Virus record (IMG/VR): IMGVR_UViG_3300037400_003633
Location: 22,560-86,559 of that record
Direction: 5' to 3' (one strand)
From: a virus
Lineage: Duplodnaviria > Caudoviricetes
DNA length: 64,000 nt
Shown: piece after piece, positions 5,481 to 17,002 of the stretch
Layout: every line of letters begins with the position of its first letter
Numbering within the stretch: the first letter of the stretch is position 1
The notes under the pieces: model-generated
Told to the model about the DNA's origin: nothing
The model's input: only the letters and a program-made list of their open reading frames with translations
Databases searched by the model: none
Position numbers and translations under genes: made by a program

Positions 5481-5798
5481 ATGGAACAGGACGAAAGTAA
5501 GATTTTTGAAAAGTTCTACGGCAAAAAGGTTTGTACGGAGAAACTAAATGTAGAGGGCTACAAGAAACCCATCCAGTTTGATATTTATGACGGTTATGCT
5601 GTTTGTCCAAGCTATAAGGGGCACAGGCTTGAAATGACCTACCCACAGATGAAAGCGGTAAAGGACAGCAAGGAGTTTTCAGACGCTATTATGAACTACG
5701 TTAGTGGTATTACCAATGTAGATGAAATAACCGTCCTACACGTCCTGATAGCCTTTGGTACGTTCTATAAGGATGGGGTGGAGATTCCAGCTAAATAA
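5481..5798 (+). CDS. hypothetical protein
   Basis: ORF track; promoter + leader. Confidence 0.8.
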   Translation: MEQDESKIFEKFYGKKVCTEKLNVEGYKKPIQFDIYDGYAVCPSYKGHRLEMTYPQMKAVKDSKEFSDAIMNYVSGITNVDEITVLHVLIAFGTFYKDGVEIPAK

Positions 5799-5832
5799 CG
5801 ACAGAAACAATCTTAAAACACTTACAATTATT

Positions 5833-6006: not shown

Positions 6007-6076
6007 TTTTTCATAGTTTTTTATTGTTTTATTGTTAGTTATTCAGGGGGTGCATAAAAAGATGCACCCTTTTTTT
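6007..6076 (+). ncRNA. candidate antisense-TIR small RNA B with terminator
   Basis: TTTTT-CAT-AGTTTTTTATTGTTTTATTGTTAGTT then GGGTGCAT/ATGCACCC + T-run. Confidence 0.55.
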
Positions 6077-7342: not shown

Positions 7343-7427
7343 AAAATACTGGTAAAAACTTGTATATCTCGAAAATTTTATATATCTTTGCCTTGTGAGG
7401 TAATTATATATTAAAATCAAAGATATT

Positions 7428-7553
7428 ATGAGTGGAAACAAAAGACTAATGCGTAGTGTAGAACACCTGAGAGTGATTGCTACGCCAACGAGAGTGCGAG
7501 AGAATGAGGACGGCACAAAGGCCCAACTCTATCGAATAAACCCGATGAGGTGA
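7428..7553 (+). CDS. 41-aa small ORF (MSGNKRLMRSVEHLRVIATP...)
   Basis: translated by hand; ATG after promoter 7359-7390 and A-rich leader; below the ORF-track cutoff. Confidence 0.5.
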   Translation: MSGNKRLMRSVEHLRVIATPTRVRENEDGTKAQLYRINPMR

Positions 7554-7554
7554 C

Positions 7555-7715
7555 GCACTAAAATGCCTGGGGCTATATGACAGGACTGCCGACGTTACGT
7601 CTCCTGAAGCCCTTTAAACTACCCTAACGTGGATTGGGTGTCCACACTAATCAATTAAGGAAATGGAGCGACAAGAACGACCACCGCCCTGATGCAGGGA
7701 TATAGGTTTTAAATG
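7555..7715 (+). ncRNA. putative structured RNA
   Basis: non-coding, GC-richer, nested stems GGGCT/AGCCC, CAGGA/TCCTG, GACG/CGTC, plus GTGGA/TCCAC and CCCTG/CAGGG. Confidence 0.35.
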
Positions 7716-7758
7716 AATATTATAATAAGTTTGCGACATAATAAAAGATAAAAATGTC

Positions 7759-7832
7759 TGGATAGTAGCTCAGTTGGTTAGAGCACTATGGCATTTGCCT
7801 ATGAGTCGCAGGTTCGAGTCCTGCCTGTCCAG
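7759..7832 (+). tRNA. tRNA-like RNA with disrupted anticodon arm (pseudo-tRNA)
   Basis: acceptor TGGATAG/CTGTCCA, D arm GCTC-AGTTGGTTA-GAGC, T arm GCAGG-TTCGAGT-CCTGC; anticodon arm CTATG-GCATTTG-CCTAT does not pair canonically and lacks U33. Confidence 0.75.
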
Positions 7833-7846
7833 CAATGCGTCGTGAT

Positions 7847-7915
7847 GATGCCTGTTTTTCCATAATGAAATTGTTAGGTTGAGGGAAGCGTATCCAGATG
7901 GGTGCGCTTCCATTG
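7847..7915 (+). ncRNA. candidate antisense-TIR small RNA C with terminator
   Basis: GCCTGTTTTTC-CAT-AATGAAATTGTTAGGTTGA then GGAAGCGTATCC/GGGTGCGCTTCC hairpin. Confidence 0.5.
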
Positions 7916-8022
7916 TTTATGTTAAAAATACTATAAGGTTATAAGTTTTTCTCGAAAAAATTTGGTAGATTCGATTTTTTTATCTAATTTTGCCACGTCA
8001 AACAATAAAAACAATAAGAGTT

Positions 8023-8445
8023 ATGGTAATAGGAATTTTAAAAGTGGAGAAAACCACAAAGGTAAAAAACAATCCGTTTTACGGAAACTACGAGGTTAAG
8101 GACACGTACACTCACAACATTGTGAATGAGAAGTATGTAGGTCTTGTATCGCCTGAGAATGGCATACACATTGTAGTGAAGTCTATTGACGGTGATAAAC
8201 TGGACATCACCATTGGTAAGTATGCTTTCACTGGTGAGCGTGAAAAGGACTTTGACGAGGACATAGAGTTTTCCACATCATTTGGCTTCAGTGGTCACAT
8301 CTATGAGGTCACAGTAGATGTTCGTGGTCAACTTATCTCTCTCGACGAATGGTACGGTTATGGTGATTTCGAGGACTGTAATGAGCCTGACAATCACTAT
8401 AAGAAGAACAGTAAGGGTATTAAGTGGGAACTTGTAGATATGTAA
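8023..8445 (+). CDS. hypothetical protein
   Basis: start corrected to ATG 8023. Confidence 0.75.
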   Translation: MVIGILKVEKTTKVKNNPFYGNYEVKDTYTHNIVNEKYVGLVSPENGIHIVVKSIDGDKLDITIGKYAFTGEREKDFDEDIEFSTSFGFSGHIYEVTVDVRGQLISLDEWYGYGDFEDCNEPDNHYKKNSKGIKWELVDM

Positions 8446-8671: not shown

Positions 8672-8771
8672 CAATTGGGCAATAATAAATGTTAAAAGAT
8701 TGGGATATTGCTTTGATATTCCAATCTTTTTATGTAATTTTGTCACGTCAAACAATAAAAAGATTATCATT

Positions 8772-9056
8772 ATGGAAACAATAGTAATCAAAGGTGTCAA
8801 ATGTTTGCTTCCTTGCAAGGTGTTATCACTTGGTCTGGATATGCAGTGCCATCATGTTATTACAAAAAGCACAATACTTTCTGTGAACGAGTCAGAAGAT
8901 AAACTTATCATTGAGAATGATGGCATAAAGATTCGTTTACGCATGAATGACTTAAATGACTTTTATCCAGATACTACGGAGAACTATAATATTCTGAAAT
9001 CGCAATGTGATGAAGAATATAGCCAGTGGCATAATAGAATTGTGAAAAATAATTAA
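8772..9056 (+). CDS. hypothetical protein
   Basis: start corrected to ATG 8772 downstream of promoter 8712-8742. Confidence 0.75.
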   Translation: METIVIKGVKCLLPCKVLSLGLDMQCHHVITKSTILSVNESEDKLIIENDGIKIRLRMNDLNDFYPDTTENYNILKSQCDEEYSQWHNRIVKNN

Positions 9057-9130
9057 AAATAAGGCAATTTCTTTGTTATTTCAAAAGTTTTCCTTAACTT
9101 TGCCCTGTCAAACAATAAAACATTAGTATT

Positions 9131-9790
9131 ATGGAAAAAAATGGTATTAAATTAGAAGTTATTCCCCACTACGTTGATGAGATTCTTGTTGACGGTAGAA
9201 AGTCTCACAGGACACTTATTAGGAAGGCTAATGCAAGGCTTTCTGAGTATAGCATGGGTAGTAAGTATTCATTCAATGATGACGATGATTTTGACACTGA
9301 ATGCCCTATCGAAATGGAGTTCTACGACGGTATAGCACTGGCTACTGATGGTTGCGGTCTATGCCTGACCTATCCAAAGTTGGAAGAAGTTGCCAAGTCT
9401 ATTGTCCGTCAGGAAAAGATTCAGGAATACACTGGTATCTATGACGGTACTATCAATCAGCATGACGTTGCCTTGACCTATGGCGTGTTGAAATTCGATG
9501 AAAAGCAGGACAAGGTTAGCACATCTATTAGTATGCAAGCCTTTGAGCATGAGGCACTGGTATTGATGTCAGGTGACATATTTCAACAGGTATATAATAT
9601 GTCAGAAGTGTATGACTATAACCTTGCTGCCAGTCTTGTTCGTGACGCTGCCTTACGCTTTGAAAAGAAGTGGTGGGAAATGAAAGCGGACGATAAGGAT
9701 GATATGCTTGACTACATCTTTGAAATGGAGAAGTTCGAGGAAGAAGAACTTGCACGTTTACGTGAGATTTACGATACTGAAAACGTTTAA
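9131..9790 (+). CDS. hypothetical protein
   Basis: ORF track; promoter + leader. Confidence 0.8.
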   Translation: MEKNGIKLEVIPHYVDEILVDGRKSHRTLIRKANARLSEYSMGSKYSFNDDDDFDTECPIEMEFYDGIALATDGCGLCLTYPKLEEVAKSIVRQEKIQEYTGIYDGTINQHDVALTYGVLKFDEKQDKVSTSISMQAFEHEALVLMSGDIFQQVYNMSEVYDYNLAASLVRDAALRFEKKWWEMKADDKDDMLDYIFEMEKFEEEELARLREIYDTENV

Positions 9791-10744: not shown

Positions 10745-10824
10745 TATCATATTGTAAGATTCGTGATTTGTGTTTTTCATGGTAGTGCCATTCCAGTCAG
10801 TGATGATAGGGGTGGCTTTTTTTT
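10745..10824 (+). ncRNA. candidate antisense-TIR small RNA D with terminator
   Basis: TAT-CAT-ATTGTAAGATTCGTGATTTGTGTTTTT then GCCATTCC..GTGA..GGGGTGGC + T-run. Confidence 0.45.
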
Positions 10825-10828
10825 ATAT

Positions 10829-10856
10829 GGCTCTGTGGTGGAACTGGCATACACAA
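10829..10856 (+). pseudogene. isolated tRNA 5' fragment (acceptor strand + D arm)
   Basis: GGCTCTG TG GTG GAACTGGCATA CAC A; no anticodon or T arm follows. Confidence 0.55.
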
Positions 10857-10863
10857 CAAATAA

Positions 10864-10965
10864 GGGGGAGTGTCGAAACTGGTAGCCGAGGGGGACTTAA
10901 AATCCCCTGCCCATTAGTATTACACGAAAGTAAGTAGCGTGAGGGTTCGAGTCCCTCCTCCCCTA
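10864..10965 (+). tRNA. trnL: tRNA-Leu(TAA) with a 33-nt variable region
   Basis: acceptor GGGGGAG/CTCCCCT, A73, D stem TCG/CGA, anticodon arm GGGGA-CTTAAAA-TCCCC, T arm GAGGG-TTCGAGT-CCCTC. Confidence 0.85.
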
Positions 10966-16813: not shown

Positions 16814-16924
16814 AAGGGAGAAAGAGCATGTTGGCGTTGCCAGTGGTGTTCCCACTAAAGAACCCAGCAAGATTCAGGTAGCTCCTGATGCGCTGGAAAG
16901 TAGGTTCGAATCCTTGCTCCCTTT
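16814..16924 (+). ncRNA. tRNA-like RNA of about 110 nt with a very large variable arm and non-canonical anticodon loop
   Basis: acceptor AAGGGAG/CTCCCTT, T loop AGG-TTCGAAT-CCT, D-like GCA-TGTTGGCGT-TGC, stem AGTGG-TGTTC-CCACT, extra arm CCAGC/GCTGG enclosing TCAGG/CCTGA. Confidence 0.6.
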
Positions 16925-16926
16925 CA

Positions 16927-17002
16927 AGCGATTTCAATTCTTCTGATTTATTCATTTTGCATTTACCCAGTGGCTGTCGGGAGACACCTGCTGGGCTTTT
17001 TT
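16927..17002 (+). ncRNA. candidate antisense small RNA F with GNRA terminator
   Basis: reverse complement AAATGCAAA-ATG-AAT-AAA-TCA-GAA-GAA-TTG; hairpin CCCAG..GGGA..CTGGG + T-run. Confidence 0.35.

Follow-up and report, generated by a model that had tools for sequence, protein, structure and literature searches.

A tRNA-like element that appears not to decode lies directly upstream of a small RNA module in rumen phages and may mark a place of RNA processing

Directly upstream of a putative small RNA gene, here called sRNA C, a phage from the rumen encodes an RNA that is built like a tRNA everywhere except in the arm with which a tRNA reads its codon, and this poses the question of whether the RNA is a working tRNA, the remains of one, or a tRNA-shaped structure that has been put to some other use. 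The window, by which we mean the whole stretch of 64,000 nucleotides that was analysed, comprises bases 22560-86559 of a viral record of 86.5-86.6 kb (IMGVR_UViG_3300037400_003633; Duplodnaviria, Caudoviricetes) whose completeness is estimated by CheckV at 29%. Related contigs of 134 kb and 154 kb are estimated to be 45% and 52% complete, and these figures therefore point to a phage genome of about 300 kb. Every related sequence, DNA or RNA, was recovered from samples of the rumen or the bovine gut, and the source is probably a rumen jumbo phage with a Bacteroidota host. The first 22 kb of the window consist of plus-strand cassettes in series, each of which opens with a promoter-like repeat (TTTG, about 19 nt of spacing, TAnnTTTG), which we take to be of the Bacteroidota promoter type, and an A-rich leader. 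The features of the unit that contains the tRNA-like element are collected in Table 1.

Table 1. Features of the transcription unit containing the tRNA-like element, in window coordinates.
Feature	Position	Strand	Remarks
Promoter	7359..7390	+	Bacteroidota-type, -33 CTTG, -7 TAnnTTTG; member of repeat family D5
41-codon ORF	7428..7553	+	MSG.K.L...RV.A.P..VREN.DG.K.QLY.I.P..
Mini-ORF MERQERPPP-stop	7663..7692	+	Between the 41-codon ORF and the element
Candidate second -7 box, TAAGTTTG	7726..7733	+	25 nt 5′ of the element; proposed on sequence only
tRNA-like element	7759..7832	+	74 nt; regular acceptor, D arm, variable loop and T arm; non-canonical anticodon arm; discriminator G; no CCA
Hairpin 1	7837..7851	+	5 bp, GUGA(U) loop; 5′ side of the sRNA module
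sRNA C 'seed'	7852..7883	+	Single-stranded, near-invariant; contains UGUUUUUCCAU; antisense to leader plus AUG
Intrinsic-terminator-like hairpin and U-rich tract	7884..7921	+	12 bp at 7884-7911

The body of the element is that of an ordinary tRNA, and a first reading made from the sequence alone (the sequence-only reading) was correct in describing its acceptor, D and T arms as well formed and its discriminator as G. The 7-bp acceptor (UGGAUAG/CUGUCCA, including one G.U pair) is followed by U8-A9, by a D stem GCUC/GAGC with GG present in the D loop, and by a T arm of the form GCAGG-UUCGAGU-CCUGC; the discriminator is followed by CA and not by CCA, so that CCA is not encoded. ARAGORN recognizes a single gene in the window, at 7759-7833 on the plus strand, and the Rfam tRNA model RF00005 matches the element with 48.7 bits (E 2.3e-7 with the whole window searched; gathering score 29). 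The anticodon arm had been described in the same reading as broken, with a bulged GGC-AUUU-GCC pairing and without U33, and two treatments bear this out: RNAfold of the arm in isolation forms only GGC-AUUU-GCC, and the covariance model fits the arm only with an inserted U, giving a loop CAUUUGC with A33 and G37. Scoring by ARAGORN, which had been suggested as a check, yields tRNA-Lys(ttt) despite A33, G37 and the irregular stem; this call is a warning, and is not to be counted as decoding capacity. Among the properties that a decoding tRNA would be expected to have, the element possesses a cloverleaf above the RF00005 threshold, and lacks both a 7-nt loop with U33 and a fitting purine 37 on a regular 5-bp stem (its G37 adjoins a UUU anticodon) and an anticodon that is constant among orthologues. 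Two other class assignments were considered and rejected: the model for YrlA and bacterial Y RNA (RF02553) scores too low (18.6 bits versus a gathering score of 69, and on the T-arm side only) and the acceptor of the element is open-ended, where a Y RNA would have its tRNA-like module closed and continued into a Ro-binding stem, while for tmRNA ARAGORN finds no candidate in the window.

Whether the anticodon arm is aberrant in this copy only can be judged from relatives. An exact 25-mer taken from the T arm and acceptor has zero matches in viral contigs, and distant BLAST searches of phage records return generic tRNA halves only. Relatives were collected through the flanking sequences in two ways. 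The first set consists of six viral contigs with a homologue of the downstream gene (8023-8445, 50-94% identity), and in all six a tRNA-like element is present at the same position; ARAGORN types these as Leu(aag), Ser(tga), Arg(cct), Gln(ttg) or '???', or makes no call, so that there are five different 'anticodons', or none. The second set was obtained with the conserved stretch 3′ of the element as query and contains 8 viral and 22 metagenome contigs, amounting to about 25 distinct variants, a count that overstates their independence since the variants share ancestry. In all of them a T arm and then a 7-bp acceptor helix are present, and the helix stops 3-12 nt short of the downstream hairpin. 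The background of the loose T-arm-plus-acceptor detector is 0.34 matches per kb, and chance placement within 15 nt before hairpin 1 would therefore occur with a probability of about 0.005 per locus; it is seen in every variant.

The variants contain 14 acceptor-stem and 13 T-stem sequences, with pairing preserved in nearly all of them, and the parts of the element differ greatly in how strongly they are conserved. Nine representatives, each of a different clade, have a mean pairwise identity of 0.87 in the D arm, 0.87 in the variable loop and 0.88 in the T loop, with 0.63 in the acceptor, 0.65 in the T stem, and 0.55 in the anticodon arm, which is different in all nine. The core of the L-shape (U8, A14, GG, the variable loop GGGUC and the T loop) is conserved over this wide divergence. 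The anticodon arm changes from clade to clade, with loops of 3-7 nt, insertions of 15-90 nt (15 nt in L003, and about 35-90 nt in L028, L011, L019, L036 and L038), or loss of the arm altogether, as in L034, where a 50-nt element is made up of acceptor, D hairpin and T arm. The near-canonical forms have an anticodon hairpin of 5-6 bp with a 3-5-nt loop, built from six unrelated stem sequences. The discriminator is G, A, U or C among the relatives and the acceptor sequence is equally free, which argues against recognition by one synthetase; in L007 the discriminator is directly followed by CCA.

A tRNA-Leu gene of the same phages provides a control, and has the anticodon UAA in every relative where it is called. 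The window copy (10864-10965) has a regular CUUAAAA loop, an extra-long variable region of about 30 nt and no encoded CCA; it is missed by ARAGORN and by Rfam at the gathering threshold, and is recovered only by Rfam in E-value mode (47.3 bits). Drift of the anticodon arm with conservation of the elbow in related phages, for which the sequence-only reading had recommended looking, is what we observe, and the pattern that it had named as contrary to its proposal (an intact tRNA in the relatives and decay of all arms in this copy) did not appear, since the relatives differ in their anticodon arms and the acceptor and T stems covary. Such drift with the elbow kept indicates that this is neither a decaying tRNA nor a decoder. 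As far as comparison of these sequences can tell, the element is non-decoding, and selection maintains the body of a tRNA and not its decoding.

The element is coupled in every variant to the module formed by hairpin 1, seed and terminator, and both lie on the plus strand in one transcript. An antisense unit C had been noted at this place beforehand, and while the unit itself is confirmed its location required correction, as it shares the strand and the transcript of the element and is not a minus-strand gene. The small hairpin that had been described at its 5′ side is also real and covaries in the relatives: in an alignment of 20 variants 97.9% of the cells are paired, both sides change in three of the five pairs, and the covariation score is matched by none of 500 shuffles. 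The seed that follows is the reverse complement of a leader-plus-AUG-like sequence, and is identical in four of the six protein-synteny relatives, for which the seed had not been used as a query; the other two (L004 and L006) have a different sequence in its position that is also antisense to a leader-plus-AUG-like string. One frame of the seed reads MKLLG-stop, and was rejected as coding since it is lost in relatives through 1-2-nt indels. A terminator hairpin occurs in every variant (11-13 bp, -20 to -25 kcal/mol, at least nine stem sequences) and is followed by a U-rich tract; the terminators were folded one sequence at a time because the MAFFT alignment is out of register between clades. 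With hairpin 1, seed and terminator in succession, the module is laid out like an sRNA that acts by base pairing and ends at an intrinsic terminator.

Other anti-leader-plus-terminator units, at approximately 1577-1647 and 6007-6075, are situated directly 3′ of protein genes and have no tRNA-like element, from which it follows that the module does not need such an element in general. These units adjoin the stop codons of early genes, which looks like a general 3′ end module of early cassettes, and they are possibly 3′UTR-derived sRNAs.

Searches for targets of sRNA C gave results at the level of chance. In the 86.5-kb record, ungapped complementarity to the seed reaches a score of 36 at best, equal to the mean best of 200 shuffled seeds (36.0, sd 2.4), and the two leaders that had been proposed as targets, at 9119-9139 and 8760-8778, do not rise above chance. 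Related phage records (27-154 kb) contain only the sRNA gene itself at up to three mismatches, and 401 Bacteroidales genomes contain five seed matches versus nine for a reversed control. An exact complement of the seed, with a 1-nt insertion allowed, is present in a sole bacterial genome, a Bacteroidales MAG (L040, 7866-7889), where it coincides with the leader and the AUG of an ORF for a membrane peptide of 30 codons; this leader was rejected as a target, about one such match being expected by chance in that collection.

The FopS/GibS sRNAs of Bacteroides (RF04319) consist of a single-stranded U-rich seed followed by a terminator and pair with translation initiation regions, and FopS sRNAs bind RbpB (PMC11697453). 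sRNA C has the motif UGUUUUUC(C)AU in common with the FopS consensus and its UGUUUUUCCAU resembles the FopS start, whereas it differs in having an extra 5′ hairpin and a tRNA-like element in place of a 5′ end of its own. Membership of sRNA C in the family was rejected, since RF04319 has no match at E ≤10 on 7826-7930. An Rfam match to FopS does occur in L008 at 5716-5809 (56.4 bits, just above the threshold), 3 nt 5′ of tRNA-Leu, and the window contains a similar unit at about 10777-10830 that opens with GUGUUUUUCAUGG, has a terminator and lies 5′ of the window tRNA-Leu; the two units look like phage-borne copies of the host Bacteroides sRNA family.

On its other side the element is preceded by a promoter and small reading frames. 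The promoter motif, for which we presume a Bacteroidota consensus, recurs at the equal relative place in L003, L004, L008 and L013 in a regex scan. The 41-codon ORF has preserved its length, start and stop in L004, L006, L008 and L013, matches no family in Pfam or PHROG, and is covered from 7447 onward by RNA contigs of four studies. A mini-ORF ending in ERPPP (9-11 codons, with the stop at once or at most two codons on) is found in L003, L004, L006, L008, L011, L013 and L024, and could possibly encode a polyproline leader peptide with EF-P-dependent stalling. The TAAGTTTG box is identical in L003 and L026/L033 and missing from other clades, and is a weak candidate for a second -7 box. The order of the early unit is conserved, and runs from the promoter through the 41-codon ORF, the ERPPP mini-ORF, the element and the hairpin to the single-stranded seed and the terminator.

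Two further arrangements were seen upstream of the element in some relatives. At L005 (approximately 2000-2430) and L007 (approximately 1850-2275) the place of the small ORFs is taken by about 450 nt of non-coding, G+C-rich DNA with repeated AGAGAGCCGC motifs, which could be a large structured RNA; Rfam finds no family at threshold on these two loci. In L012, L029, L031, L035, L037 and L038 a second closed RNA-like element is located directly 5′ of the tRNA-like element, about 60-160 nt upstream, with a stem UUCCCG...CGGGAA and an internal T-arm-like hairpin whose loop has 9-10 nt.

The unit is represented in RNA libraries, and part of the segment 7390-7990 is found in 18 bovine-gut metatranscriptome runs from at least 10 studies. 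Assembled contigs from four of these runs were aligned to the window, with the understanding that the ends of contigs do not prove the ends of RNAs. The segment 7447-7704 is covered by contigs in all four runs, and the common start of the contigs at 7446/7447 in four studies was rejected as an RNA end and read as a break in the assembly graph, there being strain differences between the window and L003 at 7444/7445. The contig of run X1 (388 nt, depth 15) covers 7447-7833 and ends one base past the discriminator, and is the only one of the four to stop there, with X3 stopping at 7805. Its single unaligned end letter is not an A, because the genome has A at 7834, and since close relatives do not differ between about 7825 and 7911 the stop is not accounted for by a strain bubble. 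This one contig observation is a hint that an RNA ends here, at the 3′ boundary of the tRNA-like structure, and perhaps bears a C that is not encoded, as reported for plant t-elements (PMC1920247). The same contig spans 7759, so that an RNase P cut at this position must be incomplete or absent, and upstream RNA is joined to the element in at least part of the molecules. The segment 7834-7915 is uncovered by contigs of the four runs, which is uninformative either way, as contigs can miss small RNAs.

What, then, could be the role of a tRNA body that appears not to decode? What RNase P and RNase Z recognize in their substrates is the helix of acceptor and T arm together with the elbow, and not the anticodon arm (for tRNA-like substrates, PMC1920247). 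The element retains precisely the acceptor/T-arm helix and the elbow between D-loop and T-loop and leaves the anticodon arm free, and this pattern of conservation, which includes the arm-less L034, corresponds to the footprint of the two enzymes. That the element always lies directly 5′ of a conserved small RNA suggests that it most likely marks a cutting place for the tRNA-processing enzymes of the host. We propose, with about even confidence, that it acts as tRNA-like punctuation, cut by RNase Z or RNase P, that ends the upstream small-ORF RNA and releases the sRNA. In this scheme RNase Z or another 3′ endonuclease would cut after G7832, whereupon the upstream small-ORF RNA would gain a tRNA-shaped 3′ end and sRNA C a 5′ end four nucleotides before the protective hairpin 1; RNase P may also cut at the 5′ boundary of the element.

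RNase Z occurs in likely hosts, being present in 28 of the 31 Bacteroidales that were sampled and in B. thetaiotaomicron, which served as a control. The gene for the phage tRNA-Leu does not include CCA, and the host must therefore have both an endonuclease that cuts near the discriminator and a means of adding CCA. In Bacillus subtilis RNase Z is inhibited by CCA after the discriminator, which counts against punctuation in the case of L007. The sequence-only reading had offered two possibilities, and the first of these, a processing scaffold that releases sRNA C, is the better supported, through the linkage to the sRNA, the conservation of the parts read by RNase P and RNase Z, the want of an encoded CCA in the phage tRNA-Leu as well, the commonness of RNase Z and the end of the X1 contig at 7833, with the cleavage itself being a prediction. 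Its second possibility, a non-cleavable decoy for anticodon nucleases, has fared poorly, since the anticodon loop is the only part without conservation and one relative is without the arm, and such a decoy seems unlikely.

A different kind of decoy has to be weighed, in which the released tRNA-like RNA is itself the product and the sRNA simply has its transcript in common with it. The RNA would then be a stable sponge, occupying a host factor by way of its elbow or acceptor, and this factor could be, for example, a defence nuclease directed at tRNAs, a modification enzyme or the enzyme that adds CCA. Conservation of the L-shape core with compensatory changes over a wide divergence would be expected of such an RNA, as would its presence in metatranscriptomes. 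However, the freely varying discriminator and acceptor give no sign of a single partner, whether synthetase-like or sequence-specific. The anticodon loop, at which the known anticodon nucleases are directed, is unconserved or absent, and a sponge does not account for the unvarying association with one sRNA seed; we consider this reading unlikely.

Alternatively, the element may never be cut off and may stabilise the RNA to which it belongs, giving the small-ORF mRNA a tRNA-shaped 3′ end or capping the sRNA at its 5′ end. The anticodon arm of such a chassis would be a platform for inserted RNA modules, in a natural version of the recombinant 'tRNA scaffold'. Engineered tRNA scaffolds protect their inserts in E. 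coli (PMC3753655). The joining of upstream RNA to the element in the X1 contig fits with this, as do the large structured insertions placed exactly in the anticodon arm in L003, L028, L011, L019, L036 and L038, yet these inserts are unconserved across clades, none of the RNA contigs of the four runs joins the element to the sRNA, and a 3′ end at the discriminator would still require a cut, so that the idea partly overlaps with punctuation. Taken by itself we regard it as about as unlikely as the sponge.

Neutral decay of a pseudo-tRNA beside an unrelated terminator region would account for the imperfect anticodon arm of the window copy and for an Rfam score below that of typical tRNAs. Decay, however, would harm all of the arms, yet there is covariation in the acceptor and T stems, identity in the D arm and T loop stays at 87-88% where the neighbouring proteins drop to 50%, and the element is found in every relative, at a divergence that excludes the recent copying of one sequence; this explanation is very improbable. 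A working tRNA-Lys(UUU) with an unusual anticodon loop, resistant for example to a host anticodon nuclease, has the ARAGORN call in its favour and a precedent in the nuclease-resistant tRNAs known from phages, and is scarcely credible in view of A33, G37 and the bulged or shifted stem, of orthologues with other 'anticodons', 3-5-nt loops or no arm, and of a related contig with an ordinary tRNA cluster elsewhere that includes tRNA-Lys(CUU).

Punctuation by a tRNA-like element has counterparts outside the phages. The t-elements of plant mitochondria are non-canonical cloverleaves within longer transcripts, and the termini of RNAs fall at their ends. RNase P and RNase Z have been proposed or demonstrated to act on them, and in some of them a lone C that is not encoded has been added at the 3′ end (PMC1920247). 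The phage element resembles them in keeping the acceptor/T-arm helix and the D/T elbow while the remainder is dispensable, as in the 50-nt form of L034; unlike the t-elements, which are organellar and flank mRNAs, it parts a small-ORF RNA from an sRNA, and its cleavage is a prediction. In the TMERs of MHV68 a viral tRNA-like element is followed by small regulatory RNA hairpins that are released by tRNase Z (PMC4838037). Here too a virus-encoded tRNA-like element stands directly 5′ of what is probably a small regulatory RNA, although the TMERs belong to an animal virus and depend on pol III and Dicer, whereas the phage unit has a bacterial sigma-type promoter, an intrinsic terminator and an sRNA of the base-pairing type. 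In RNAs of the MALAT1/NEAT1 mascRNA type the tRNA-processing machinery uses a tRNA-like structure to form the 3′ end of the upstream RNA (PMC12941219); these are, in contrast, mammalian nuclear long non-coding RNAs without a downstream sRNA. In bacteria, the regulatory RNA 3′ETS-leuZ is cut out of a tRNA transcript, of which it forms the trailer (10.1101/2021.04.25.441314). The phage element differs from it in that its tRNA part seems to have lost decoding. The tRNA of 3′ETS-leuZ is reportedly a genuine decoder, with the trailer a by-product that has been put to use.

Further tRNA-like and tRNA loci were encountered in the window and in one related contig. A second and weaker tRNA-like RNA, called by neither Rfam nor ARAGORN, is located at 16815-17000 in the window, with an acceptor AAGGGAG/CUCCCUU, a T loop UUCGAAU, about three clean T-stem pairs and a long interrupted middle, and is followed by an anti-start stretch and a terminator. 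The contig that contains L007 (G403) has a large tRNA cluster at 135-153.6 kb (loci L061-L077) with a genuine tmRNA (tag GENVDSPAYAYAVAA), a tRNA with the amber-reading anticodon CUA, and many tRNAs of 82-87 nt belonging to normally short types (Met, Trp, Thr, Lys and Cys), which may reflect stop-codon recoding or non-standard cloverleaves.

Tentatively, and with somewhat less than even confidence, we suggest that rumen Bacteroidota jumbo phages have turned a tRNA gene into a non-decoding processing or scaffold module for sRNAs, a counterpart in prokaryotic viruses of the herpesvirus TMERs, in which the freed anticodon arm would be a landing site for additional modules of RNA, and translation starts of the host or the phage would be regulated by the FopS-like sRNA once it is released. 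Elements of tRNA shape with a part in directing RNA processing are known from organelles, from mammalian long non-coding RNAs and from one herpesvirus, and in the literature searched here no phage or bacterial sRNA gene of such a build was found. No Hfq or ProQ is known from Bacteroidota. If the predicted cuts are true, the element would represent a new route of sRNA biogenesis in Bacteroidota, would explain some of the 'odd' or 'undetermined' calls that tRNA finders make in phage genomes, and would constitute a natural tRNA-scaffold design that accepts inserts of 15-90 nt in its anticodon arm.
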